From the sequence record PP129558: 64,000 bases of DNA. One strand, written 5' to 3'. Below are positions 3,469 through 58,272 of the stretch, one piece after another. The notes beneath the pieces were generated by a model. The model was given only the letters and a program-made list of their open reading frames with translations, searched no databases and was not told the origin of the DNA. A program made the translations under genes and the position numbers. The stretch comes from Escherichia phage vB_EcoM_01. Position 1 is the first letter of the stretch, and each line of letters starts with the position of its first letter.

Positions 3469-3677
3469 TGGTTACTATCACATTGACAGTTACACAAGAG
3501 CAAGCAGAAGAATTACGTGATGCACTGGCATATATGGGACGCGCTTATTATATGCCTCACAAATCTCAAGATGTTTTTGCTACAGCCGTTGAGAAAGCTT
3601 TAAATAAATACCAAGAAACTCATGCCGTTCCTAAAGTATCAGCGGAAGAGTTTGGCACTTGGCACGAAGTTCACTGA
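3450..3677 (+). CDS. Hypothetical protein
   Basis: ORF with GGAGG RBS. Confidence 0.4.
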   Translation: MVGGEIMVTITLTVTQEQAEELRDALAYMGRAYYMPHKSQDVFATAVEKALNKYQETHAVPKVSAEEFGTWHEVH

Positions 3678-3687
3678 GGAGGTTTCG

Positions 3688-3921
3688 ATGAAAGGTAACA
3701 AGATGAAAGTTAATCAAGTGCCGAGCGCATACACTTTGTGGCTTGCACGAGCGTTACACCAGACGATCAAAAACCCTAAGAAGCCAATGAAGAGCGGGAA
3801 GAAGTTTATGTCTAAGGGCAAAACAACCTTTGGCTTCACTCGTATGTCTGTTAAGATGAAAAGACTGGGGTACAAGCCAAACTACGCTCGTTACCCTTCT
3901 GAATACAACTGGTTTGACTAA
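3688..3921 (+). CDS. Hypothetical Lys-rich basic protein
   Basis: ATG at 3688 preceded by GAGGAGG; table ORF 3622 trimmed to RBS-supported start. Confidence 0.4.
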   Translation: MKGNKMKVNQVPSAYTLWLARALHQTIKNPKKPMKSGKKFMSKGKTTFGFTRMSVKMKRLGYKPNYARYPSEYNWFD

Positions 3922-4019
3922 AAGGAGGAAGATTATGGCTACTTTTCAACAACTGAAAGATGTTTCACGTTTAGTAAGAAAAATCCGAGAAGCAGACGCT
4001 GCTGCTGTCTCTTATACAN

Positions 4020-4609
4020 NNNNNNNNNNNNNNNNNNNNNNNNNNNNNNNNNNNNNNNNNNNNNNNNNNNNNNNNNNNNNNNNNNNNNNNNNNNNNNNNN
4101 NNNNNNNNNNNNNNNNNNNNNNNNNNNNNNNNNNNNNNNNNNNNNNNNNNNNNNNNNNNNNNNNNNNNNNNNNNNNNNNNNNNNNNNNNNNNNNNNNNNN
4201 NNNNNNNNNNNNNNNNNNNNNNNNNNNNNNNNNNNNNNNNNNNNNNNNNNNNNNNNNNNNNNNNNNNNNNNNNNNNNNNNNNNNNNNNNNNNNNNNNNNN
4301 NNNNNNNNNNNNNNNNNNNNNNNNNNNNNNNNNNNNNNNNNNNNNNNNNNNNNNNNNNNNNNNNNNNNNNNNNNNNNNNNNNNNNNNNNNNNNNNNNNNN
4401 NNNNNNNNNNNNNNNNNNNNNNNNNNNNNNNNNNNNNNNNNNNNNNNNNNNNNNNNNNNNNNNNNNNNNNNNNNNNNNNNNNNNNNNNNNNNNNNNNNNN
4501 NNNNNNNNNNNNNNNNNNNNNNNNNNNNNNNNNNNNNNNNNNNNNNNNNNNNNNNNNNNNNNNNNNNNNNNNNNNNNNNNNNNNNNNNNNNNNNNNNNNN
4601 NNNNNNNNN
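4020..4609. other. Assembly gap (N run) with duplicated flanks and adapter remnants
   Basis: 3856-4006 repeats at 4630-4780; CTGTCTCTTATACA at 4007-4018 and ACACCACGTCTG at 4610-4621. Confidence 0.8.
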
Positions 4610-4708
4610 ACACCACGTCTGTTGTNNAGATGAAAAGACTGGGGTACAAGCCAAACTACGCTCGTTACCCTTCTGAATACAACTGGTTTGACTAAAAGGA
4701 GGAAGATT

Positions 4709-4885
4709 ATGGCTACTTTTCAACAACTGAAAGATGTTTCACGTTTAGTAAGAAAAATCCGAGAAGCAGACGCTGCTGTGCGGAATGCACTAACGCCAGC
4801 AGAGCGTGAAGATCTTGAAGAGGAGGTGAAAACAGCCGAGAATGCTTTTGCTGCGTATCTTTCAACACTGTATACAGGAGGTTAA
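4709..4885 (+). CDS. Hypothetical protein (5' end also present in duplicated flank at 3935)
   Basis: AAGGAGGAAG RBS then ATG; 59 aa. Confidence 0.4.
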   Translation: MATFQQLKDVSRLVRKIREADAAVRNALTPAEREDLEEEVKTAENAFAAYLSTLYTGG

Positions 4886-8939: not shown

Positions 8940-9395
8940 ATGAAAAAATTTATTTGCACCCGTTCCACTAACAGTGATATCCTTGTAGGTAAGGTTATCA
9001 AAGGAGAACTCTTCCATGCAAACGGTAAGAAATATATTCTGCTGAAAGATTCTTTCAACGGGGAATATCCGCGCTGCACTTTCTTCAATTACAACACTCC
9101 ATTTGCTTTAGAAGGAGATGCTTGGGACTGGGCTGAACTTCATCCTTTCTGTGAAGATGGACAGACAGAAGAGCAGGAAGAATCTACGGGAAGTTTACGT
9201 GATAAACTGCGTAATAAAGCACTGCAAGCAAATTCCCATTTTACTGAAATGGTAGACGCCGTTCTATTAGAGANNNAAGANNGNGCAAATGTTGTAGCTA
9301 CAATGCTACGTGCAAAAGGTTTGGATGTAACATTGGCAACCGCAGAGCACAGTATTTTTGGGATTATCAAACACATCGTTATTAGTTGGAACTAA
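8940..9395 (+). CDS. Hypothetical protein (contains ambiguous bases)
   Basis: ORF with GAGGAG RBS. Confidence 0.45.
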   Translation: MKKFICTRSTNSDILVGKVIKGELFHANGKKYILLKDSFNGEYPRCTFFNYNTPFALEGDAWDWAELHPFCEDGQTEEQEESTGSLRDKLRNKALQANSHFTEMVDAVLLEXXXXANVVATMLRAKGLDVTLATAEHSIFGIIKHIVISWN

Positions 9396-16834: not shown

Positions 16835-17116
16835 ATGGAACTCGTTCAAGAATTGTATAATGCTTTAGGAGCAAAAGGAAAAGATTGGCCCGAACATGCG
16901 CTTATTGCTATAAGAGACTCCGATGGTGAGATTAAGTTTTCAAGTGTAAGTAAAGAGCACATCGTAGAAACAAAACTGGGTATTTACATGCGTGGAACTT
17001 ATTGCTTATTCAACACCAGAATGGTAGAAGCTCCTGTTATTGAAGATGGAACAAAAGATTGCCCCACAATCGTAACAAAAGCTGAATATGAGAAGTTTTT
17101 CTACGCTAAGGCTTGA
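16835..17116 (+). CDS. Hypothetical protein
   Basis: ORF with AAGGAGG RBS. Confidence 0.45.
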   Translation: MELVQELYNALGAKGKDWPEHALIAIRDSDGEIKFSSVSKEHIVETKLGIYMRGTYCLFNTRMVEAPVIEDGTKDCPTIVTKAEYEKFFYAKA

Positions 17117-18624: not shown

Positions 18625-19112
18625 TCTTCCTCCTCATAATCATCATAATCTTCGTCATCCAAATCGTACACTTCGTCTTGAGAATAACTCACTTCAAAGT
18701 AAATATCAAACTCCGCAAACAAACGTAGAATGTTGGACATGCTGTAATAATTATCGTAGGCAGATTCAGCTTCATAGTAAACATAAAGCAAATGGTTAGC
18801 CTTATCATCTTCCAAATATTTCCCGTCTGCATACGCATAGTCTGCATATGCTTTACCTGCATCTTCCACAAGAGAACGATCAAGCAGAGTAGGAAATGGT
18901 TTCTCTTTTTCTTTTAGTTTGCTCACCAACCAGTGTGCAATATCATGCCAATCTGCATCCTCTCCGCTGAAGCAGCTTGCGACTTCGCCAAACTTGGCAT
19001 CTCCTAAGTCTCCGCTAATAGTGATCATGGTTGAACTATTGTAACCACAAGTCTCGCAATTTGAACAACTGTTGTGCACATGAATTTCTACTTGAAACAT
19101 ATTTCCTCCCAT
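18609..19112 (-). CDS. Hypothetical highly acidic protein, start-overlapped with Sir2-like gene
   Basis: D/E/Y-rich C-terminus; 16-nt overlap with downstream gene. Confidence 0.4.
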   Translation of the reverse strand: MGGNMFQVEIHVHNSCSNCETCGYNSSTMITISGDLGDAKFGEVASCFSGEDADWHDIAHWLVSKLKEKEKPFPTLLDRSLVEDAGKAYADYAYADGKYLEDDKANHLLYVYYEAESAYDNYYSMSNILRLFAEFDIYFEVSYSQDEVYDLDDEDYDDYEEEECQDD

Positions 19113-19158: not shown

Positions 19159-19771
19159 CTATACCAGACTTTCAAGGTATTTGTCAAGGGCTTCTTGATC
19201 ACCTTGACAAACATAGCAACGGAAGTCTTGAGCCGAAGGTTGTTTATTTTCATCCCAGTCCCAATAAACATTACCCTTATAACGTGAACCAGGAAACTCA
19301 AAAGAGGCTGTATGTGTAATGTATCCTGGGCCACCAGTGAAATCACAGAATGAGAATTGAGGATATGCCGCCTTTACTGCCTCAATAAACCAAGCTTTAC
19401 GATCTAAGGCTTCATTGATGCTATATGCATGTCTCTCCATTTCTTCCCAAGTTTTCCAGACACTTCTCTCATCAGGAGAAAAGACAAGCNATTCNGGANG
19501 NGNANNNAGNNGACTCCTCCAGTTTTGAGTAATCAAAAGCAGAATATACCCACCAACCATCCTCCAGTAAGGCTTTGATAGGGACGAAGCCTTTATCAGC
19601 ATATTGATCGAATTGTTTGACACGGTGGCTTGTGCAGTCTTCAAACTCACATTCTAAACGATATGCACCTTTTCGACGAGCCTCAAGACCGTGTGTACTG
19701 AAAATAACAACACTTCCTTCACCATCATTACGATCTACTTGATAAGCAACTACTGGTTTTGAATTTGACAT
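19159..19771 (-). CDS. Hypothetical protein (ORF interrupted by ambiguous bases at 19490-19512)
   Basis: Two table ORFs in same frame across N-containing stretch. Confidence 0.4.
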
Positions 19772-34072: not shown

Positions 34073-34399
34073 TTACCAGACGTTTTGTGATACTAATGTT
34101 TCAGTTTCAATATTATACTTATTAAGCAGTTCAAAATAGATCTCATTCGCTTTTTTATTTAAGCTTGTGAGGTCTATGGCACAAGCACCACAGCCGCTAC
34201 ACAGCTTGACACCGAAGACACAATCTTCAGGATCTGCATCGTACCACGGGGAAATGTTGTCCAAGCCCAAACCTTCGCAGAGAAACCAATTAAAGTCCCC
34301 ATCGAACTGGTCTTCAACTTGTGGGTCGTCTCCAAATATTTCTTTCCATTTATCATATGGTGCACCCTGTAACATATGCCATTCGATATCAATACCCAT
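34073..34399 (-). CDS. Hypothetical Cys-rich protein
   Basis: CSGCGAC cluster. Confidence 0.4.
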   Translation of the reverse strand: MGIDIEWHMLQGAPYDKWKEIFGDDPQVEDQFDGDFNWFLCEGLGLDNISPWYDADPEDCVFGVKLCSGCGACAIDLTSLNKKANEIYFELLNKYNIETETLVSQNVW

Positions 34400-34904: not shown

Positions 34905-35989
34905 TCGAAGTCAAGCTCCTCATCATCAGAGAGATCTTTGTTAGCTGAATTCAATTTGTAGTTAGTTAACTGAATCTCTTGGGCTGCTGACTGAATCAAA
35001 TCAGGATTCAACCATTTTTCCATCCAAGCTAAAGGACTATGTTTAGGTGCTTTAAACTTGGCTTTCATTTTCAATCGACGATAAATAGGGGCAGCATTGA
35101 AATAAACCCACTGTTTAGACAATTCGGCGTTAAGACCTACAATAAAACGCCCTTCACTAAACAGGTAGTCACACCACTGTTCCTCTTGTTCAACAACAGT
35201 GTCGAGAATCAAAGTCAACTCTTCGATATTGTCTTCGTAAATTTTACGCCAAATTGGGTCATGCATCAATGCATCAATTACAGCATAATCCATCTTAACA
35301 TGCAAGATTTCATCTAGCATAATTTTCTGGATCAGTTTACAAGCCCCAACAAACAGTTGTTGTTCTGCCATAGCAAAAGTAGCAGAGAAGGAAGATATAA
35401 ACTGAATACCTTCTAATCCAATCAGGGCTACCATCCCTTTAAGAATCAGCAGTCGAAGTTCATCGTTAGCTTCAATCAATCCTAGAGCATACTTATGACC
35501 AGCTTCTTCCAACTGACCCATGATATCAGCAATGATACCCATACGATTGAAAATTTTATCATTAATCATAATCTGATTGATGACTTCGATTGGATCTGGA
35601 GTACATTGACGGATTATTTCAGAATACGTTAACGCATGGAGAACTTCCATTTCACTCTGCTTCATCATCATAGCACAGGCTTCATTGTTACTCAAGAATG
35701 GAGAGAACAAAGTGATGATTGATTTTGCAAGAGAATCATTTTCCCATTGGAACGATAAGTTTTTAATCATAACATCATAGTTGTTTTTAGAACAAGCTAC
35801 GAAATCTTTACGTGTCTGATCCAGATTGACTTCATTCTCATCCCAATCTTGTGCTTTTTGAAGTTTGTAGAGTTTGTGCATCTCTGGATAAGTTACGTTA
35901 ACAGAATCAAAGATCCCTAATTGTTCCCCTAAAAATACTGGATATTTTCCTGTTTTGTAAACTTCATTGTGTAAATTAATTGCTGCCAT
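34901..35989 (-). CDS. nrdB: Ribonucleotide reductase small (beta) subunit
   Basis: Size and position next to nrdA; assigned mainly by context and family resemblance. Confidence 0.75.
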   Translation of the reverse strand: MAAINLHNEVYKTGKYPVFLGEQLGIFDSVNVTYPEMHKLYKLQKAQDWDENEVNLDQTRKDFVACSKNNYDVMIKNLSFQWENDSLAKSIITLFSPFLSNNEACAMMMKQSEMEVLHALTYSEIIRQCTPDPIEVINQIMINDKIFNRMGIIADIMGQLEEAGHKYALGLIEANDELRLLILKGMVALIGLEGIQFISSFSATFAMAEQQLFVGACKLIQKIMLDEILHVKMDYAVIDALMHDPIWRKIYEDNIEELTLILDTVVEQEEQWCDYLFSEGRFIVGLNAELSKQWVYFNAAPIYRRLKMKAKFKAPKHSPLAWMEKWLNPDLIQSAAQEIQLTNYKLNSANKDLSDDEELDFE

Positions 35990-36011
35990 TTAAAATTCTC
36001 CTCAATAAAAA

Positions 36012-36025
36012 GGGGCCGAAGCCCC
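36012..36025 (-). promoter_or_regulatory. Intercistronic GGGGCTTCGGCCCC hairpin between nrdA and nrdB, copy 3 of 3
   Basis: Hairpin + T-run then GAGGAG RBS and nrdB ATG; duplicated at 37013-37026 by assembly. Confidence 0.5.
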
Positions 36026-36123
36026 TAGTTTCATCACATCTTGCAAGCTTCACAACCACCATCAGAATCTTCTTGTGCTAAAGAGTCTGCTGATTTTGTT
36101 CTACTATTAAGGTAATACAATGA

Positions 36124-36975
36124 NNNNNNNNNNNNNNNNNNNNNNNNNNNNNNNNNNNNNNNNNNNNNNNNNNNNNNNNNNNNNNNNNNNNNNNNNNNNN
36201 NNNNNNNNNNNNNNNNNNNNNNNNNNNNNNNNNNNNNNNNNNNNNNNNNNNNNNNNNNNNNNNNNNNNNNNNNNNNNNNNNNNNNNNNNNNNNNNNNNNN
36301 NNNNNNNNNNNNNNNNNNNNNNNNNNNNNNNNNNNNNNNNNNNNNNNNNNNNNNNNNNNNNNNNNNNNNNNNNNNNNNNNNNNNNNNNNNNNNNNNNNNN
36401 NNNNNNNNNNNNNNNNNNNNNNNNNNNNNNNNNNNNNNNNNNNNNNNNNNNNNNNNNNNNNNNNNNNNNNNNNNNNNNNNNNNNNNNNNNNNNNNNNNNN
36501 NNNNNNNNNNNNNNNNNNNNNNNNNNNNNNNNNNNNNNNNNNNNNNNNNNNNNNNNNNNNNNNNNNNNNNNNNNNNNNNNNNNNNNNNNNNNNNNNNNNN
36601 NNNNNNNNNNNNNNNNNNNNNNNNNNNNNNNNNNNNNNNNNNNNNNNNNNNNNNNNNNNNNNNNNNNNNNNNNNNNNNNNNNNNNNNNNNNNNNNNNNNN
36701 NNNNNNNNNNNNNNNNNNNNNNNNNNNNNNNNNNNNNNNNNNNNNNNNNNNNNNNNNNNNNNNNNNNNNNNNNNNNNNNNNNNNNNNNNNNNNNNNNNNN
36801 NNNNNNNNNNNNNNNNNNNNNNNNNNNNNNNNNNNNNNNNNNNNNNNNNNNNNNNNNNNNNNNNNNNNNNNNNNNNNNNNNNNNNNNNNNNNNNNNNNNN
36901 NNNNNNNNNNNNNNNNNNNNNNNNNNNNNNNNNNNNNNNNNNNNNNNNNNNNNNNNNNNNNNNNNNNNNNNNNNN
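36124..36975. other. Assembly gap (N run) flanked by 148-bp exact duplication
   Basis: 35976-36123 equals 36976-37123. Confidence 0.8.
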
Positions 36976-37034
36976 ATTAATTGCTGCCATTTAAAATTCT
37001 CCTCAATAAAAAGGGGCCGAAGCCCCTAGTTTCA

Positions 37035-39275
37035 TCACATCTTGCAAGCTTCACAACCACCATCAGAATCTTCTTGTGCTAAAGAGTCTGCTGATTTTGT
37101 TCTACTATTAAGGTAATACAATGATTTGCCACCCAGTCTAGCAAAATTCAAAATAAACTGCATCTCAGCTTTCACGGATAAACGTCCACCTACCAATTTA
37201 GAATAATCTAGCCAAGAATCACAAGAAATTCCTTGGTCAGTAAACTTGGTAAAGATACCATACATTTCTGCAAGGTCTTTAGCCGGAGTATCCCAGGCAG
37301 ATTGGTAGAACATTTTCAGTTTTTCGTAGTCTGGAACAATAAATAATACACTACCTTTCTGACTTTGTTTATACATAATGGTATCACGAACAGGATACAG
37401 AGAGTTAGTAGTATTGCTTACCAAACTGCTGGACTCATTAGGTGCAATAGCAGCCAATACACTGTTACGGATACCACCTTGTTCAATGATTTCAGCACGT
37501 AAGCCTTCCCAGTCCATTTTAAGATCAAAATTACCGATACTATCTACTGTTTTAGCATAAGTGTCAATTGGTAGCCAACCTTGAGGCCATTTGGTCTTAT
37601 CGATCCATTCTGCATTACCTTTTTCCTTAGCCAGACGCAGAGAGGCTTTTGCCAACCAGAAGTAATGACGTTCTGCAAGTTCATGCATTAATTTTTTAGC
37701 ATAAGCATCTGAATAATTTACAAAATTACTTGCCAAGTAATGCGCTAAGTTTGTAATGCCTACACCAATAGATCTACGTGCTTTAGCAGTTATTTCGTTA
37801 TGTTTAAATGGATAATCCATTGTTTCAATAACGTTGTCAATTGTCAATACAGTGTAGTATGCAACATCTTCATATTCTTCAGGTAATACACGACCAGCAA
37901 CAATAGAAGATAAGAAGCATAAAGCCAATTCTTGATCTTCTGTATTCTCACCAGTAAAGAGATCCGGCATACTGTGGAAAGCTTTAGTTGGTAAGAAGAT
38001 CTCTTGACACAGGTTTGATTGATACACCGTATCCAGGAAAGGTGTATGGTTGTTAACGTTGTCAGCAAAGAACATGTAAATACGTCCTGTTTCTGCACGT
38101 TGAACAATAATCTCTGTCAGAAGATCACGAGCCTTAACAAATTTTTTCTTAATGCGACGACGGCTTACTTTGTCATAAACTGCATCAAACTCTTCTTCAC
38201 TTTTATACAAAGCTTCATAAAGTTCTGGAGCATCATCACAACTAACTAACATCCAATCTTCGTTTTTTGCTGCTCGACGCAAGAATGAACGGTTAACAAC
38301 AATAGAATAATCCAGTTTGTCTACTCGTTTATCTATAGGTGTTGTTGGATTCTTCAGTCGAATCAGATCGTCGAAGTCTGGTTCAAGTATGGTAAAGGTA
38401 ACTGTAGCACTACCTCCACGGCTTGCTTGCTTCGAAGCTCCAACACTATCTTCCATCCATTTCAGATATGGAAGAAGACCACCATGAATAATACGATTAT
38501 TCTTAACACCTTGACCTGTGGCACGAGTTTGAAGATTAACACCAATACCTGCGTTATTTAACGTATACTCATGAGCTAAGTAATTAGCAATGGCTAAAGA
38601 CTCTGCTGTATCGTCTGCGCGGAATAAACAACAAGACGCACTTCCTTTGATTGGAGTTCGTAGAGTTGTCAGATACGGCGATGGCAGATTAATCTTAAGA
38701 TCGCTAACATAAGTATAAAGTTTTTTAATATCTTCTATACGGCGTTCTTTTGGTTGGATCTCCATAACCTTCATTGCGATACCAATGAAAAGAAACTGTG
38801 GAGACTCATGCACAACATCGTTTACTGCATCTCGAATAAGATATTTATCTACCATCTGACGTAAAACAGAATAACCATAAGTTAGATTTTTATTATGCTT
38901 TACAATCTTACCGATTTCTTTGATCTCTTCATCAGTATAATCCATTTTAGCCCAATGTCCACGTTCTACCATATCATGATAAAAGGTATTCAGTGAAGGG
39001 ATACTGTGGTATCCCCCATGAGCCTGTTTGTAAATCATACCCAGAAGAAGTCTTCCTGCCATATCACTGTAAGCTTGTGTTTTCTTGTCAATACACGCTG
39101 CAATCATTGCTTTATGCAGATCACGTGTAGACACACCGTCATAACACCGCTTCACAGCTTCTAATTCAATTTCAGACCAGTTTAGTTTACCTGCTGCAAA
39201 TTCAGACCACTTGCGAAGTTTTTCTGGATTAAACTCCTCTGTCTTACCGTTAGATTTAGTTACAAAACGAATCAA
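37035..39275 (-). CDS. nrdA: Ribonucleotide reductase large (alpha) subunit, class I
   Basis: 746 aa; multiple conserved Cys including C-terminal pair; context with nrdB and glutaredoxin. Confidence 0.8.
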   Translation of the reverse strand: MIRFVTKSNGKTEEFNPEKLRKWSEFAAGKLNWSEIELEAVKRCYDGVSTRDLHKAMIAACIDKKTQAYSDMAGRLLLGMIYKQAHGGYHSIPSLNTFYHDMVERGHWAKMDYTDEEIKEIGKIVKHNKNLTYGYSVLRQMVDKYLIRDAVNDVVHESPQFLFIGIAMKVMEIQPKERRIEDIKKLYTYVSDLKINLPSPYLTTLRTPIKGSASCCLFRADDTAESLAIANYLAHEYTLNNAGIGVNLQTRATGQGVKNNRIIHGGLLPYLKWMEDSVGASKQASRGGSATVTFTILEPDFDDLIRLKNPTTPIDKRVDKLDYSIVVNRSFLRRAAKNEDWMLVSCDDAPELYEALYKSEEEFDAVYDKVSRRRIKKKFVKARDLLTEIIVQRAETGRIYMFFADNVNNHTPFLDTVYQSNLCQEIFLPTKAFHSMPDLFTGENTEDQELALCFLSSIVAGRVLPEEYEDVAYYTVLTIDNVIETMDYPFKHNEITAKARRSIGVGITNLAHYLASNFVNYSDAYAKKLMHELAERHYFWLAKASLRLAKEKGNAEWIDKTKWPQGWLPIDTYAKTVDSIGNFDLKMDWEGLRAEIIEQGGIRNSVLAAIAPNESSSLVSNTTNSLYPVRDTIMYKQSQKGSVLFIVPDYEKLKMFYQSAWDTPAKDLAEMYGIFTKFTDQGISCDSWLDYSKLVGGRLSVKAEMQFILNFARLGGKSLYYLNSRTKSADSLAQEDSDGGCEACKM

Positions 39276-46461: not shown

Positions 46462-47190
46462 TTATTTCTTAGCAATGATTTTTGCAATATCAGGTTTAAC
46501 AAAGGTAGAAGGCTTCATGATCTTACCTTTATCATCAAAGAACACATACACTTTCTGTTTTTCATTATAAACAGCATGAACACCAGTGTATGCCCCTTCT
46601 GGACGATTGGCATTTCGTTCTTCAATTGCAGCGCATTCTTGTGCAATGGCTGAATCGATATCCGAAGTTTTCCAAGTTTTCAGCAACTGTTGTTTAGTTG
46701 GATACTTGGAATCATTACTTTTCAATACCTCTTTAATAACTTTCTTTTCTGGATATTTTGAACGGATTAGAGTGTCACGAGACATACGCATAATACCAGC
46801 AGCCATTAGTGCCATTTGAACTGGCTCTGTAAATGTTTGTTCCAAAGCATCAAAATCAGTATACACAGTTGGAGTAAAAACATCGCCTACAACATAGTCC
46901 AAGAAATTCATCGTATGTTCTTCACCAAAGAACATGTAAGTAAGATAACTGGATACTACAAAAATATCCGCTGCTGCATCCAAGAGTTCTACATGATCGT
47001 TTACTTTCGCGGCTGTTTCATACTCTTTAAGCTCTTCACGAACGAACCCGATTTGGGACATAAATAGCTCTTGAGTGAATTCAGGTTGTTCACCACCTCG
47101 TGCTTTGGCATTCCAATCAATTACGTGCTTTGCTGCATTTTTGAAAAATTCAGTATCGAATTTAATATCTTTAAAAAAATTCTCGATCAT
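46462..47190 (-). CDS. MazG-like nucleoside triphosphate pyrophosphohydrolase (tentative)
   Basis: REELKEYETA (EExxE) and ELLDAAADI (ExxD) motifs. Confidence 0.45.
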   Translation of the reverse strand: MIENFFKDIKFDTEFFKNAAKHVIDWNAKARGGEQPEFTQELFMSQIGFVREELKEYETAAKVNDHVELLDAAADIFVVSSYLTYMFFGEEHTMNFLDYVVGDVFTPTVYTDFDALEQTFTEPVQMALMAAGIMRMSRDTLIRSKYPEKKVIKEVLKSNDSKYPTKQQLLKTWKTSDIDSAIAQECAAIEERNANRPEGAYTGVHAVYNEKQKVYVFFDDKGKIMKPSTFVKPDIAKIIAKK

Positions 47191-47199
47191 TATAACTCC

Positions 47200-47382
47200 T
47201 TATTTAAAATAGCTTTCTAGAAAGTTGCTAATATTTACTACAGACTCACCCATGTAAATCCCTGCGAAACCGAAAACAAGCATACGTGGAATATTGAAAT
47301 ACCATTTATCTGCCGGAAAAGATGCCAGAATTACGATAGCAATTGCTATCAACATCATAAGAATTGTTGCTAAAATTATCAT
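47200..47382 (-). CDS. Small hydrophobic membrane protein (lies in duplicated segment)
   Basis: MIILATILMMLIAIAIVILA; GGAGG RBS. Confidence 0.35.
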   Translation of the reverse strand: MIILATILMMLIAIAIVILASFPADKWYFNIPRMLVFGFAGIYMGESVVNISNFLESYFK

Positions 47383-47622
47383 AAAAATGCCTCCAGGTAT
47401 TTTGCACAATGATAAGCTAAGAACATTTTTCCTCCTTATTCTGCTGGTTCCCAAGTGCCTGGGATCATTTCTCGAATACGATAGCAATTGCTATCAACAT
47501 CATAAGAATTGTTGCTAAAATTATCATAAAAATGCCTCCAGGTATTTTGCACAATGATAAGCTAAGAACATTTTTCCTCCTTATTCTGCTGGTTCCCAAG
47601 TGCCTGGGATCATTTCTCGAAT
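47339..47622. repeat. Exact tandem duplication of ~142 bp (probable assembly artifact)
   Basis: 47339-47480 identical to 47481-47622, includes 3' end of ligase gene. Confidence 0.7.
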
Positions 47623-49447: not shown

Positions 49448-49852
49448 TTATTGAAGTTTAAGTGAACCACGAAGACGCTTCTCTTGCTGATCACGAATAT
49501 ATTGTGGAACCTCGTGAATTGAATCATTACCGTGCCTATTTTCAACAACTAAAGAGATAACTTGATAACCAAACTCTTCAGCAAGAGTTAGATAAGGTTT
49601 AAGTTCTTTCTCTGTGGTTGAAGTGTTAGAAACAATAATCTTGTTAAGATTAGATGCCATAGCATCACGAACAATACTCTGACACCATGCGTGTGCTTTA
49701 CCTACATTTTCTGGCTTCCAATCGTAAACACCACTTTCTGTGTAATGATATTGATCTGCCTCACAGATAGGCCAATAACCTTCAGAAATAATTTCTGCTA
49801 CTGTAGATTTACCAGCACCTGAAACGCCACGTAAAATGATAAGTTGTTTCAT
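49448..49852 (-). CDS. Polynucleotide 5'-kinase (T4 Pnk kinase-domain-like P-loop kinase)
   Basis: Walker A GVSGAGKST at N-terminus, ~134 aa, adjacent to ligase. Confidence 0.6.
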   Translation of the reverse strand: MKQLIILRGVSGAGKSTVAEIISEGYWPICEADQYHYTESGVYDWKPENVGKAHAWCQSIVRDAMASNLNKIIVSNTSTTEKELKPYLTLAEEFGYQVISLVVENRHGNDSIHEVPQYIRDQQEKRLRGSLKLQ

Positions 49853-50785
49853 TTATCCTCCAAAGAAGTTTTCGATTTTTTCACGTCGCTCTTGCTGATT
49901 TAAAGCAGCCCATTGAGTCTTCGTAAAATTATTTCGAATCCATTCTAACAAAGCGTAATATTCTTCGTCAACAATTTGTTTGGCATTTTTTGGATTATCC
50001 CAAATCAGATCCCACTTTTTATCTCCACCGCGCATAAGAAACTTCTTAGTAAGATAGTGTGGTGATTTAATTTTTAAAAGTAAGTTGAACGGATAGTTTG
50101 TTTCACGAACTACAAACCCTTCGTGTTTACAATGCTTAGACATTTCAACAACATCTGAAAACTTAACCATTGGATGAACTTCAGGACGCTTAAATTTGGT
50201 GACAGAAGCAATCCCATCAAGAGCACCTTCAGGTAACATAAAACTTGTCCCATCAGGATTTTGAATTCTGGCACCAATTAAGTATGCACCTGGTTCTTCT
50301 TCGACAATATGTGGATCAGAAGGATCACAGATTTCAAAAAGGAAAGTTGCTTTTGCACTCTCTGTCCATTTGATGAAATGTTCTATGTCATCACACTCTG
50401 AAACAATACGATTCTTTGCAATACTTGCAAAATCTGATTCAAGGCTTCCTGTTGTCGATACAATAAGCTGACCTTTATATACACCTACAGAGGCCATAAA
50501 ACCATTTACTTTACGAACCACATCTACAAATTCATCCGCTGGTAGATCTGTGCCATTCTCAAAACGATTAAAAATCTTAGTGAAAGGCCAAATAACAACA
50601 TTGTCATCAGCGTCAACAACGATTCCGCGACATTCTAGAAGACGAGAATCAATGTTCCACAGGTTATCCCAGAAAACTTTGTTCTTATACTTAAGAACAG
50701 ATAGACCAGAATACTCTCCTTCTTTATATGTTTTCTTATGAACTAAACCTTTTTCAACCAAATCGTCGCAATTAAATTTAGTCAC
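49853..50785 (-). CDS. Nucleotidyltransferase-type ligase, probable RNA ligase
   Basis: KVNGFM (KxNG), EGFVVRE, LLKIKS motifs; RNA assignment from operon context. Confidence 0.5.
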   Translation of the reverse strand: MTKFNCDDLVEKGLVHKKTYKEGEYSGLSVLKYKNKVFWDNLWNIDSRLLECRGIVVDADDNVVIWPFTKIFNRFENGTDLPADEFVDVVRKVNGFMASVGVYKGQLIVSTTGSLESDFASIAKNRIVSECDDIEHFIKWTESAKATFLFEICDPSDPHIVEEEPGAYLIGARIQNPDGTSFMLPEGALDGIASVTKFKRPEVHPMVKFSDVVEMSKHCKHEGFVVRETNYPFNLLLKIKSPHYLTKKFLMRGGDKKWDLIWDNPKNAKQIVDEEYYALLEWIRNNFTKTQWAALNQQERREKIENFFGG

Positions 50786-50786
50786 A

Positions 50787-51338
50787 TTACTCTCCTTTGA
50801 TTATTTTGTGATGGTCTACAGTTACGATATCTCGTTTACTCATCATAGAAATTATCTCATCAAAATGTAAGATTTTTCCATGTGCATCCCAACCCACATC
50901 TAACATTTTACCATAAGCTTCATCAGGGAAAGATCCGTGGGAATGCCCATGTAGCATGATTGATCCACGACCTTGTTTATTCCAGGAGGCCATAGGGTAA
51001 TGGCTTAAGACGAAGAACAGCTTCTGATATTTCACTTCGTCATAATACACCACTTCTCCATACTCTGCAAGCACTTCTCGGTGTTTGCTGTAATCATGGT
51101 TCCCAACACAATAAGTGATATCCCCTTGGAGGCGGGAAGCAATCTTACGGGTATCTTCTTCAGTCCCGAAACAGAAGTCACCCAAATGCCACATCTTGAC
51201 ACCTGGACTCGTAGCGCATTTATTCCATGCTTCGATCAGTGCTTCTGTCATGTGGTCCATATCTTCCCACGGTCGATATTCAGGAGCAAACTCTCGTATA
51301 CGTTTGTGCATAAAATGCAAATCACTTGTAATAAACAT
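50787..51338 (-). CDS. Calcineurin-like metallophosphoesterase (candidate 2',3'-phosphatase of repair cassette)
   Basis: SDLHFMH, GDFCFG, GNHD, HGHSH motifs. Confidence 0.6.
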   Translation of the reverse strand: MFITSDLHFMHKRIREFAPEYRPWEDMDHMTEALIEAWNKCATSPGVKMWHLGDFCFGTEEDTRKIASRLQGDITYCVGNHDYSKHREVLAEYGEVVYYDEVKYQKLFFVLSHYPMASWNKQGRGSIMLHGHSHGSFPDEAYGKMLDVGWDAHGKILHFDEIISMMSKRDIVTVDHHKIIKGE

Positions 51339-51694
51339 TAGTATAATCCCTCGCTAAATAGGTCACGATCATGACCATTACGTTCGTAGTCAATCTGGTC
51401 TGCGTGTTTTGCAATAATGTATGCATCTTCACGACTCCACCAATTGTAGTATTGATCAATAAAACCTTGATTGTTTGGAAGACAATGCACTTTATCAAGC
51501 ACACCTGCTTCTTTCAATACATTCAATTGTGCTGATAATACAGGATTTGCATGTCGAACACAAGGAATAATTAACTCTTCACCATTATTCAAAATATATT
51601 TATTCGCAGCACAGACGATAACACGTTGCGCATAATGACCCTCACCAATCCAGGTAAGAGGTTGGTAACAAATGTTCTGATCAATACTACTCAT
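51338..51694 (-). CDS. Hypothetical protein
   Basis: ORF. Confidence 0.4.
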   Translation of the reverse strand: MSSIDQNICYQPLTWIGEGHYAQRVIVCAANKYILNNGEELIIPCVRHANPVLSAQLNVLKEAGVLDKVHCLPNNQGFIDQYYNWWSREDAYIIAKHADQIDYERNGHDRDLFSEGLY

Positions 51695-51912
51695 TAAGTT
51701 TCTCCTTAATAGTGAACACGAATCATTTTAATACCATAACGCAGCATGGATTCTTTTGCAAGCATATAACACGTTGCGCATAATGACCCTCACCAATCCA
51801 GGTAAGAGGTTGGTAACAAATGTTCTGATCAATACTACTCATTAAGTTTCTCCTTAATAGTGAACACGAATCATTTTAATACCATAACGCAGCATGGATT
51901 CTTTTGCAAGCA
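51619..51912. repeat. Exact tandem duplication of ~147 bp (probable assembly artifact)
   Basis: 51619-51765 identical to 51766-51912. Confidence 0.7.
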
Positions 51913-52210
51913 TGAATTTATCCCCAGCGGCGGGGTTAGAAGTATGCACGAAAATGGTAGGTGAACCAAAGCAAGGTTTACCAAACGCCAGAAGTTCTTC
52001 CAGGTACAGGAAAACATCATACCCATCTTGGTCTGACTCCATACCCAAATCGTTGTCAAAATGCCACTCGTCTACAAAACGATAACCCTTCTGCACCTCA
52101 TTCATGTAACGAGAGGCAAGAAGTTCCTGTGAGGTTTTAAACCAGATTGCATCTGGACAACCATAATCTTTTGGATCACGTAAATCATCAAGCCAAATAA
52201 TAGTACCCAT
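51854..52210 (-). CDS. Hypothetical protein with N-terminal IIWLDDxRDP motif
   Basis: ORF. Confidence 0.4.
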   Translation of the reverse strand: MGTIIWLDDLRDPKDYGCPDAIWFKTSQELLASRYMNEVQKGYRFVDEWHFDNDLGMESDQDGYDVFLYLEELLAFGKPCFGSPTIFVHTSNPAAGDKFMLAKESMLRYGIKMIRVHY

Positions 52211-52912: not shown

Positions 52913-53073
52913 GTTTTACCATTATCAACCAAGGTCTTTGCTACAGCATACTCCTTCCCATTAACAAGGAAATAATAAACTATAAAAGATTTCCCGATTG
53001 TTACTGTCTTAGTAACCTCTACACGTTTAACACCTTGCATGTATTTTGCCTTACCGGAATAGAGTAAAATCAT
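52891..53073 (-). CDS. Hypothetical protein
   Basis: ORF. Confidence 0.35.
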   Translation of the reverse strand: MILLYSGKAKYMQGVKRVEVTKTVTIGKSFIVYYFLVNGKEYAVAKTLVDNGKTWKVETL

Positions 53074-53351
53074 TTTGCATTCCTCTTGTTGTTGATAACA
53101 TCCATAGCAGTATATGGTTTATTAGTGCCATGATACTCCAGAATCATTGGAGAGCCTTCTTGCACTACTTCAAAGATACCATAAACAGAACTTTCAGCAA
53201 ATACCATTTGCTTCGTGCCTTCATCGTTTACAACGAGAGAAAACTTCTTGCCTGTCCCGTTGAGGATCTCGTATTTCTTGCCAGCAGTGAATAATCCAGA
53301 GTACCACTCATTATCTGTTGCTTTTACACACTTCAGGAAAGTCTTGATCAT
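53070..53351 (-). CDS. Hypothetical protein
   Basis: ORF. Confidence 0.4.
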   Translation of the reverse strand: MIKTFLKCVKATDNEWYSGLFTAGKKYEILNGTGKKFSLVVNDEGTKQMVFAESSVYGIFEVVQEGSPMILEYHGTNKPYTAMDVINNKRNAK

Positions 53352-53463
53352 TTCTTTTTGCTCCTCTTTTTAGATTTCTCATACAAACCTAACACAGCCG
53401 CTTCTTTTGCACAAGTAGGAACTGAAGTCATTCCTCTTCTTTTTGCTTCTGGCAGTTGCAAAG

Positions 53464-53844
53464 TCCATATTCNGTCTCTTATNNNNNNNNNNNNNNNNNN
53501 NNNNNNNNNNNNNNNNNNNNNNNNNNNNNNNNNNNNNNNNNNNNNNNNNNNNNNNNNNNNNNNNNNNNNNNNNNNNNNNNNNNNNNNNNNNNNNNNNNNN
53601 NNNNNNNNNNNNNNNNNNNNNNNNNNNNNNNNNNNNNNNNNNNNNNNNNNNNNNNNNNNNNNNNNNNNNNNNNNNNNNNNNNNNNNNNNNNNNNNNNNNN
53701 NNNNNNNNNNNNNNNNNNNNNNNNNNNNNNNNNNNNNNNNNNNNNNNNNNNNNNNNNNNNNNNNNNNNNNNNNNNNNNNNNNNNNNNNNNNNNNNNNNNN
53801 NNNNNNNNNNNNNNNNNNNNNNNNNNNNNNNNNNNNNNNNNNNN
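53464..53844. other. Assembly gap (N run) with duplicated flanks
   Basis: 53322-53463 repeats at 53860-54002; AGAGACAG adapter remnant at 53845-53852. Confidence 0.8.
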
Positions 53845-53879
53845 AGAGACAGCTTTTACACACTTCAGGAAAGTCTTGA

Positions 53880-54233
53880 TCATTTCTTTTTGCTCCTCTT
53901 TTTAGATTTCTCATACAAACCTAACACAGCCGCTTCTTTTGCACAAGTAGGAACTGAAGTCATTCCTCTTCTTTTTGCTTCTGGCAGTTGCAAAGTCCAT
54001 ATTCCCCACCAATAGATTTGGTCTGCCGTGAGTGGTTCAGCCATTGGATCTGCCTCCTGCTCCTCAAGACGTTGCAACGCTTCTTCAATCTTCTCGATTG
54101 GTGTGTCAAAGACGAATGCCTCCGTATCAAACTTATCTTTCTTAGGAACTGATTTGGCTACTTTGAGAACCTCGTTTTTCGGTTTCTTAGTAACGTTCTT
54201 TGGCTTTGATAACTTCTTCGGTGTTTTCGCCAC
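53880..54233 (-). CDS. Hypothetical Lys-rich protein
   Basis: ORF. Confidence 0.4.
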   Translation of the reverse strand: MAKTPKKLSKPKNVTKKPKNEVLKVAKSVPKKDKFDTEAFVFDTPIEKIEEALQRLEEQEADPMAEPLTADQIYWWGIWTLQLPEAKRRGMTSVPTCAKEAAVLGLYEKSKKRSKKK

Positions 54234-57538: not shown

Positions 57539-57811
57539 ACACAACATTAAGAGCACTGTGATTGATCGTCGTATCCTGTGCACAAGGTCTGCTCGAAAGA
57601 CAGTGTTCTTAGTATTGTGTTGATCACAAAAAGAGTCACCCGAAACTTGACCGGAGTAGGGTTGGATGGGGCAAAATGAGAAGCGGCTCTCCCATCGACA
57701 GCAACGAAGAATAATATTTGACTTTGGTTTTGTATTATTTTAAGTTAGCTTACCGAACGTAGGGCTAGTCACCCAACGGGATACTCGTCACTGTCCCAAT
57801 CAATAAAAGTC

Positions 57812-57840
57812 TTGACAACAAATAGTAAAATGTAGTATAG
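57812..57840 (+). promoter_or_regulatory. Sigma70-like promoter (TTGACA-N16-TAGTAT) inside tRNA region
   Basis: Motif upstream of tRNA-Gly. Confidence 0.45.
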
Positions 57841-57852
57841 TAAATATATAGG

Positions 57853-57926
57853 GCGTTCTTGGTGTAGCGGTAGCATTCCGTCCTTCCAAGTCGGCGGCAC
57901 GAGTTCGATCCTCGTAGAACGCTCCA
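57853..57926 (+). tRNA. tRNA-Gly (anticodon TCC)
   Basis: Acceptor GCGTTCT/AGAACGC, T-arm ACGAG-TTCGATC-CTCGT, loop CTTCCAA. Confidence 0.6.
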
Positions 57927-58024: not shown

Positions 58025-58100
58025 TGGTTTGTAGTGTAGTCCGGTAGCACACGACACTTTGACTGTCGTAGGTTTGGTTCAAATCCAGACAGACCAGCCA
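58025..58100 (+). tRNA. tRNA-Gln (anticodon TTG)
   Basis: Acceptor TGGTTTG/CAGACCA, anticodon arm CGACA-CTTTGAC-TGTCG. Confidence 0.65.
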
Positions 58101-58267
58101 TATAACGGAATTTAGCTCAGTTTGGTAGAGCGTACGCTTTGGGAGCGTAGGGTCGCAGGTTCGAATCCTGCAATNCNGACAGACCAGCCATATAACGGAA
58201 TTTAGCTCAGTTTGGTAGAGCGTACGCTTTGGGAGCGTAGGGTCGCAGGTTCGAATCCTGCAATTCC
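58088..58267. repeat. Exact ~90-bp tandem duplication spanning tRNA-Gln 3' end and tRNA-Pro, N bases at junction (probable assembly artifact)
   Basis: 58088-58177 equals 58178-58267; Ns at 58175 and 58177. Confidence 0.7.
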
Positions 58268-58272
58268 GACCA
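58196..58272 (+). tRNA. tRNA-Pro (anticodon TGG); a redundant copy at 58106-58182 lacks a proper 3' end
   Basis: Acceptor CGGAATT/AATTCCG, anticodon arm TACGC-TTTGGGA-GCGTA, T-loop TTCGAAT. Confidence 0.65.

Follow-up and report, generated by a model that had tools for sequence, protein, structure and literature searches.

Near the start of the window, by which we mean the whole 64-kb stretch of phage DNA that was analysed, a long run of Ns is flanked on both sides by the same sequence of about 150 nt. Does this arrangement represent direct repeats around an unsequenced insertion, or was it created by the assembly? A previous sequence-only reading had proposed an artefact, with a repeat at 3856-4006 and 4630-4780 and an N run at 4020-4609. 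Both elements are present, and their exact bounds are given among the features of this region, site 1:

3688-3921, plus strand: gene for a 77-aa hypothetical protein, real, intact after collapse of the duplication
3854-4004, plus strand: left copy of the 151-nt unit, 100% identical to 4628-4778
4019-4609: run of 591 N, placeholder columns
4610-4627, plus strand: right adapter remnant, ACACCACGTCTG followed by garbled TTGTNN
4628-4778, plus strand: right copy of the 151-nt unit, continuing into the intact 58-aa gene
4709-4885, plus strand: gene for a 58-aa hypothetical protein, real, identical to AV126 WPK38227
3914-4633, plus strand: spurious X-filled ORF of 239 aa across the gap
3939-4649 and 3971-4726, minus strand: spurious X-filled ORFs of 236 and 251 aa across the gap

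In the 151-nt unit, the 3′ end of the 77-aa gene is followed by 13 nt of spacer and then by the initial 69 nt of the 58-aa gene. The 77-aa protein differs by one substitution from AV126 WPK38226 and by one from its KKP 3954 homologue. When the unit is collapsed to a single copy, the 77-aa and the 58-aa genes are both intact, and the earlier suspicion that the X-containing ORFs are not real is borne out. The ORF at 3914-4633 follows the real protein precisely up to the point where the adapter sets in (...READAA/AVSYT).

A repeat search across the whole 64-kb window (minimum 40 nt) revealed only six families of direct repeats, all of the artefact type. Three of them enclose the long N runs of the window (n = 3; 591, 852 and 362 N) and constitute sites 1 to 3. 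The remaining three, D4, D5 and D6, are gap-less pseudo-tandem duplications, which had gone unmentioned in the sequence-only reading. Apart from site 1, the repeat search and the N runs delimit the following features:

35975-36123, minus strand: left copy of the 149-nt unit of site 2, exactly equal to 36976-37124
36124-36975: N run of site 2, 852 N, placeholder
36976-37124, minus strand: right copy of the 149-nt unit of site 2
53320-53472, minus strand: left copy of the 153-nt unit of site 3, exactly equal to 53852-54004
53483-53844: N run of site 3, 362 N, placeholder
53852-54004, minus strand: right copy of the 153-nt unit of site 3
47332-47476 and 47477-47621: D5, gap-less duplication, 2 x 145 nt
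51618-51765 and 51766-51913: D4, gap-less duplication, 2 x 148 nt
58082-58171 and 58172-58261, plus strand: D6, gap-less duplication, 2 x 90 nt

At sites 1 to 3 the two flanks of the gap are identical, as is the case for an artefact in which the true gap is zero or negative. Site 1 shows an 11-nt microhomology, and the unit of site 2 holds the start of nrdB, a spacer with a terminator and the 3′ end of nrdA. Sites 2 and 3 had been placed before at 35976-37123 and 53322-54002; the duplication and the N run are indeed there, with coordinates one or two bases off, but the adapter that had been assigned to site 2 as part of the same pattern is missing. The earlier count of three artefact sites proved too low, as the window has six junctions and a terminal adapter block.

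Part of what separates the copies is library sequence. Directly after the left copy of site 1 lies CTGTCTCTTATACA (4005-4018, plus strand), a Nextera mosaic-end read-through, which confirms the transposase mosaic end described there; this 14-mer has one match in the window against 0.00 expected from 100 shuffles. The sequence reported in front of the right copy could be confirmed and assigned as well: ACACCACGTCTG at 4610-4621 consists of the P5 tail AC and the sample's 10-nt i5 index ACCACGTCTG. This 12-mer occurs only twice, at 4610-4621 and at 194-205 inside the full adapter (0.00 expected). At site 3, remnants are found on both sides:

53473-53482, plus strand: left tail, mosaic-end read-through remnant NGTCTCTTAT
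53845-53851, plus strand: right head AGAGACA(G), the final bases of the forward mosaic end

Library sequence thus borders the blocks at sites 1 and 3, whereas site 2 (35975-37124) has no adapter remnant. Mosaic-end 10-mers at 16902 and 56063 were considered as adapter and discarded, as they represent ordinary genome and occur no more often than by chance; the 10-mer at 16902 is also present, unchanged, in phage ESCO5.

A complete adapter is located at the left end of the window, in a block of poly-C and adapter that the sequence-only reading had not mentioned:

1-230: non-genomic start, poly-C and adapter; phage sequence from 231
167-226: full Nextera i5 adapter
167-195: P5, GATACGGCGACCACCGAGATCTACAC
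196-205: 10-nt i5 index, ACCACGTCTG
206-219: Nextera read-1 adapter, TCGTCGGCAGCGTC

The order within 1-230 is CCT, 152 C, P5, i5 index, read-1 adapter, AGATGTG and NNNN, and the alignment of AV126 to the window begins at 231. The 152-C run indicates a reverse-complemented poly-G read-off. The poly-G suggests two-colour chemistry, and the 152-C run together with the 149-153-nt units suggests a read length of ~151 nt.

In adapter-contaminated contigs, the adapter has been reported in forward orientation at block ends and reverse-complemented at block starts (Moeller et al. 2024, BMC Genomics 25:1033; PMC11536531). The adapter orientation in the window is the same. Further likenesses to these assemblies are the location of the adapter at contiguity breaks and the finding that trimming lets the pieces merge. 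In contrast, that study concerns the TruSeq universal adapter, whereas the window contains Nextera sequence (mosaic end, P5, i5 index); moreover, its blocks are joined by N runs within one record, and it is broken at template-specific segments only (see below).

The window belongs to Phapecoctavirus and represents a phAPEC8-like E. coli myophage of ~150 kb, with dozens of relatives at 96-99% identity; the best identity in the phage collection is 99.1%, and a chimeric 33-mer of genome and adapter has 0 hits in IMG/VR. For each site we compared a collapsed query, i.e. one copy of the unit and no gap, with independent genomes. At every site, some relatives gave one unbroken alignment with a span equal to the query length and 98-100% identity. 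The as-assembled site 1 query of 3201 nt covers 2427 nt (3201 - 774) in AV126, phAPEC8 and others, and window positions 4004 and 4778 fall on one AV126 base. Site 2, when collapsed, aligns over 1599/1599 nt at 99.6% in KKP 3954 and phAPEC8_ev052 and at 99.3% in Schickermooser, and dozens of further records behave in the same way. Full-length collapsed junctions were also recovered at site 3 (1518/1518 nt in more than 35 records), D5 (1455/1455 nt in nieznany, tuntematon, phAPEC8 and others) and D4 (1452/1452 nt in SF1-1, EF1-1, DE16 and ZCKP1), and the D6 junction aligned over about 1510 nt in KKP 3954, ukendt, AV126 and others. AV126 as the sole comparator was insufficient for site 2, D4 and D5, because it has insertions of its own there (two ORFs between nrdB and nrdA, and ~140-150 nt extra at D5 and D4); it was the search against all records that decided these cases. 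At site 1, it is KKP 3954 that carries an additional ORF.

Independent de novo contigs from Logan show nrdA and then directly nrdB. One of them, L015 (run DRR831830), matches the collapsed junction of site 2 at 100% over 799 nt and contains the unit once; its two alignments to the window share exactly 149 nt at this site. Overall, this contig is only about 98-98.7% identical to the window. The NrdA protein of the window is common to at least 63 blocks of contigs in an exact-protein lookup. In dozens of relatives' genomes and in the Logan contigs, nrdB and nrdA are directly adjacent, as they are in the window once site 2 is collapsed. Junctions that are single-copy in independent genomes thus go together with intact genes restored by the collapse, and the N gap with its ~150-nt identical flanks is an assembly artefact, not biology.

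The gap-less duplications D4, D5 and D6 share this origin with the gapped sites 1 to 3. At the D5 junction, relatives have either nothing or an unrelated segment of ~140-147 nt, and at the D4 junction either nothing or an unrelated segment of 148-149 nt (a 47-aa ORF in ESCO5). For D5, D4 and D6, the segments of carrier relatives measure +147, +148 and +90 nt, compared with repeat periods of 145, 148 and 90 nt in the window. At D6, two tRNA-Pro genes are predicted, 58106-58180, a Pro/Gln hybrid, and 58196-58272, where AV126 and ESCO5 have one. Collapse restores a single tRNA-Pro; the extra one is false. The tRNA-Gln tail AATCCAGAC and the tRNA-Pro tail AATTCCGAC disagree at two positions, and exactly these, 58175 and 58177, are written as N; an N here therefore marks a read conflict. 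A real tandem duplication should be independent of the architecture of other genomes and should give plausible products. D4, D5 and D6 show neither, since their periods equal the segments of relatives, reads conflict where the junctions have Ns, and one of the two tRNA-Pro genes, the first, is a hybrid.

Judged by these sequence comparisons, the true genome would contain each unit once and without a gap. Nothing in the sequenced phage corresponds to the N runs, and the genome is shorter by the full copy-to-copy spacing, i.e. by 774, 1001 and 532 nt at sites 1 to 3 and by 145, 148 and 90 nt at the gap-less duplications. The expectation that it would be shorter by the duplicated lengths was therefore right in direction but not in amount, as the whole spacing (duplicate, adapter and Ns) has to be subtracted, not the duplicates alone. 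Non-phage sequence in the window adds up to about 2.9 kb (2307 nt gapped, 383 nt pseudo-tandem and 230 nt adapter).

It is important to note that the duplicated units always straddle points where some relatives have extra DNA. In relatives, the six junctions contain 0 or +82 to +1058 nt, and the nrdB-nrdA spacer alone varies across Phapecoctavirus between 0, +321, about +670 (HNH endonuclease) and +996 nt. One genome, that of phage ESCO5 (KX664695, version KX664695.3; NC_047776), has an extra segment at 6/6 sites. The ESCO5 segments that are missing from the sequenced phage, and the distances between the flanking aligned blocks, are listed below:

Site 1: ESCO5 3616-4380; distance 764 nt in the window, 766 nt in ESCO5
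Site 2: ESCO5 35709-36765; distance 1062 nt in the window, 1058 nt in ESCO5
D5: ESCO5 47122-47260; distance 138 nt in the window, 140 nt in ESCO5
D4: ESCO5 51399-51547; distance 151 nt in the window, 150 nt in ESCO5
Site 3: ESCO5 53063-53626; distance 564 nt in the window, 565 nt in ESCO5
D6: ESCO5 57804-57885; distance 85 nt in the window, 83 nt in ESCO5

The spacing at the six sites is thus equal to that of ESCO5 within 1-4 nt. Throughout the 64 kb, the window-minus-ESCO5 offset stays at 292-322, unlike the offset against AV126, which jumps by hundreds of bases. Within the aligned blocks there are 83 indels relative to ESCO5, every one of 9 nt or less, and no window insertion of 10 nt or more was found in these blocks across the 64 kb. 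Two properties that would be expected of a template, collinearity with one reference across the missing segments and the lack of large indels resolved against it, are therefore found with ESCO5, and the former is not found with AV126. Base 1 of ESCO5 corresponds to window position 323, with 92 nt of genomic sequence and the 230 nt of adapter and poly-C to its left. This end, the only one of the record that the window covers, is no clean match to the start of ESCO5 but would agree with read overhang followed by extension. A search for a template record beginning at window 231 found none; ESCO5, MRostami-2023b and ESCO37 begin at window 323, and ESCO37 is without the site 2 insertion. An N-riddled stretch at 19490-19511 adjoins a 41-nt indel relative to AV126.

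A second record has the same property. OQ031492.1 (Escherichia phage MRostami-2023b), an UNVERIFIED record of a partial genome, takes base 1 of ESCO5 as its first base and measures 149,246 nt compared with 149,268 nt. Its N runs at 3865-4394, 36061-36761 and 53076-53586 correspond to the same three ESCO5-specific segments as those of the window. It is an independent case of an ESCO5-frame consensus in Phapecoctavirus and resembles the window in having the ESCO5 coordinate frame and N at reference segments without coverage. It differs in being another strain, with 80-99.6% identity to the window depending on the block. Overhang duplications of ~150 nt, remnants of adapter and pseudo-tandem duplications with no gap are features of the window that go beyond the description of OQ031492.1.

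From these data, we consider it very probable that the record is a short-read assembly from a Nextera library, in which ~151-nt Illumina reads, trimmed of neither adapter nor poly-G, were arranged in the coordinate frame of an ESCO5-like template. The most likely product of this kind is a template-guided consensus, because the six spacings equal the ESCO5 segments and the window stays elsewhere within 9 nt of the ESCO5 frame; here we infer the use of a template as well as the behaviour of the aligner and the consensus caller. The coincidence of the artefact sites with ESCO5-like extra segments of equal length argues for such a consensus and against a plain de novo mis-join.

The process may be pictured as follows. 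The sequenced phage would be without six accessory segments that are present in the template. Reads across a true junction would be put on either side of the segment, and their unmatched remainder would be retained rather than clipped or gap-aligned. The consensus would then overrun the junction from both sides, so that a unit roughly as long as a read appears twice. If each read were placed once, on the better-matching side, the two furthest overhangs would sum to one read length; only under this condition would the units of sites 1 to 3 all lie within 2 nt of 151. The break-points are indeed located near the middle of each unit. Untrimmed adapter would become visible at the thinly covered outer edges of the overhangs, and template columns without reads would be turned into N. 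With absent segments of about 90-148 nt, which a read exceeds in length, the overhangs would meet, and the result would be a pseudo-tandem duplication whose period is the length of the segment. Duplicated gap flanks are also left behind when scaffold gap-filling tools extend a mis-sized gap from its two sides. Such duplications resemble the window in that the same sequence stands on both sides of residual N, where the true gap has a length of zero or less. In the window, however, the gap sizes would come from the template and not from read-pair mis-estimates, and in the gap-less cases the period is as long as the template segment.

Several observations do not fit a plain version of this scheme. 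The window spacings are 1-4 nt off those of ESCO5, and site 2 is without adapter. Three equal-length blocks (9147-9391, 18779-18937 and 34117-34284) are too divergent for megablast against ESCO5, yet carry sequence. Moreover, the 322 nt to the left of ESCO5 base 1 exceed one 151-nt read, so that a chaining or extension step is needed beyond a plain one-pass mapping consensus. In view of the spacing offsets, the three divergent blocks and the 322-nt left extension, the exact template may have been slightly unlike ESCO5, or the pipeline may have involved iterative mapping and local assembly or extension.

Could the same structure have arisen without any reference? In a purely de novo assembly, contigs broken by adapter would overlap by approximately one fragment, and a scaffolder that missed the overlap would have inserted the Ns. 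The adapter found where blocks begin or end agrees with this scenario, its orientation being the one typically seen in contigs broken by adapter (PMC11536531). So does the 230-nt start of adapter and poly-C, a start of the kind that is typical for the ends of de novo contigs, and adapter bounds the unit on both sides at sites 1 and 3. Paired-end estimates, however, would show an overlap and not 362-852 N, and ESCO5 segment lengths reproduced within 1-4 nt at 6/6 sites would not be expected. Nor does a de novo assembly give a reason for breaks only at ESCO5-specific segments, and it explains neither the gap-less duplications with periods matching the segments of relatives (+147/+148/+90) nor the absence of indels of more than 9 nt relative to ESCO5. 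We therefore regard a reference-free origin as unlikely.

Two related ideas address the unit itself. A single library fragment of ~152 nt that was read from both ends would agree with the adapter that flanks the unit on either side at sites 1 and 3, but reads would have to exceed about 163 nt, and the location of the units across template break-points is left unexplained. A de Bruijn origin with a unit length of 2k (k = 77) was rejected: given the 11-nt microhomology at site 1, it predicts a unit of ~143 nt instead of 151, and it does not account for adapter at the edges of the unit.

Another explanation involves a mixed lysate, in which a majority phage without the segments was accompanied by a minority ESCO5-like phage whose sequence was too thinly covered and was turned into Ns. 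The junctions are truly polymorphic among Phapecoctavirus, the nrdB-nrdA spacer being an example, and the scattered short N clusters suggest some read conflict. These clusters, however, lie at indels and overhang conflicts, not at SNP-like sites, and no segment base was called in 1805 N positions. As the flanks of every gap show the left and right sequences directly joined, and as the template accounts for the spacing without a second phage, we judge a mixed lysate to be very improbable. A slightly smaller chance still is left to the notion that the N runs hide minority ESCO5-like segments, e.g. the HNH-endonuclease cassette between nrdB and nrdA, and hence an ongoing gain/loss (homing) polymorphism within the lysate.

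Real direct repeats of ~150 nt around an unsequenced insertion (a mobile element or a homing-endonuclease cassette), together with real tandem duplications, would match the bare repeat-gap-repeat pattern and the insertions that relatives do have at these points, but they can practically be dismissed, as library adapter lies inside the structure, the unit itself holds the unbroken left-right junction, the left flank does not continue into an insert but runs into the right flank and then, at site 1, into adapter, no relative has such repeats (carriers of insertions have unrelated sequence and single-copy flanks), the two copies of each of the six units agree at 100% when Ns are left aside, and one of the duplications makes a hybrid tRNA.

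The record contains false features, namely several X-filled ORFs, truncated duplicates of several genes and an extra tRNA-Pro. Since it very probably follows the frame of a template, insertions unique to the sequenced phage may be missing from it. A repeat about as long as a read, in combination with adapter, with or without a run of Ns, and with a spacing equal to the segment of a relative, may serve as a diagnostic for similar records; OQ031492.1 illustrates that the problem recurs within Phapecoctavirus. The significance of these results lies in data quality only, and they contain no biological novelty. The six sites themselves correspond to real polymorphic junctions, at which Phapecoctavirus genomes genuinely differ in whether they carry small accessory ORFs or genes for HNH endonucleases, whereas the duplications and N runs of the window are not part of that biology. 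At all six polymorphic junctions the sequenced phage has the 'empty' allele, with no further biological content, and comparisons of gene content, synteny, tRNA count or genome length that are based on the record as it stands would be wrong.

Besides the three N-gap sites of the sequence-only reading, each lying between exact duplicate flanks, the window contains three apparent tandem duplications that lack a gap and are missing from that reading:

47332-47621, gap-less duplication of 145 nt
51618-51913, gap-less duplication of 148 nt
58082-58261, gap-less duplication of 90 nt

These duplications share their origin with the N-gap sites, i.e. they are assembly artefacts, and the second tRNA-Pro is a false gene produced by the 90-nt duplication. 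The Ns at 58175 and 58177 reflect a conflict between overhang reads, that is, junction-spanning reads that run past the true junction. They belong to a set of short scattered N clusters:

157-159, 227-230, 2698-2709, 9274-9284, 19490-19511 and 58175-58177, short N clusters

The cluster at 2698-2709 surrounds an RBS and start codon, and that at 19490-19511 adjoins a 41-nt indel relative to the related phage AV126.

The window also opens with foreign sequence, and its first phage base is 231:

1-230, non-genomic block (CCT plus 152 C, a complete Nextera i5 adapter, NNNN)

The adapter comprises P5, the 10-nt index ACCACGTCTG, TCGTCGGCAGCGTC and AGATGTG. The poly-C run implies that poly-G was read off by an Illumina instrument with two-colour chemistry.

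With regard to the inferred template, phage ESCO5, the first base of a public record labelled 'UNVERIFIED partial genome' (OQ031492.1, Escherichia phage MRostami-2023b) coincides with ESCO5 base 1, and the record carries N runs (3865-4394, 36061-36761, 53076-53586 and six more) where ESCO5 has segments of its own. This record, too, is apparently a consensus templated on ESCO5. Three blocks of the window gave no megablast alignment to ESCO5:

9147-9391, length nearly equal (244/245)
18779-18937, length similar (158/167)
34117-34284, length equal (167/167)

These blocks probably represent divergent allelic cassettes, the first of which includes the N cluster at 9274-9284, and they argue for a template that is not exactly ESCO5, or for local read assembly.

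A region of about 1.35 kb (49448-50800, RNA ligase/metallophosphatase) is present in the window and ESCO5 and missing in AV126, which is ordinary accessory-gene polymorphism. These E. coli Phapecoctavirus genomes share 97-99% identity with records labelled Campylobacter phage B15, Acinetobacter phage vB_AbaM_ABPW7, Klebsiella phage ZCKP1 and a Pseudomonas phage; the host labels of these records look doubtful.

The Phapecoctavirus nrdB-nrdA spacer (window 35990-36035) is an insertion hotspot, in which relatives carry no insert or one of +321, about +492, about +647-672 or +996 nt. The insert of about 647-672 nt is annotated as an HNH endonuclease, and its position may parallel that of T4 mobE, a free-standing HNH endonuclease gene between nrdA and nrdB.
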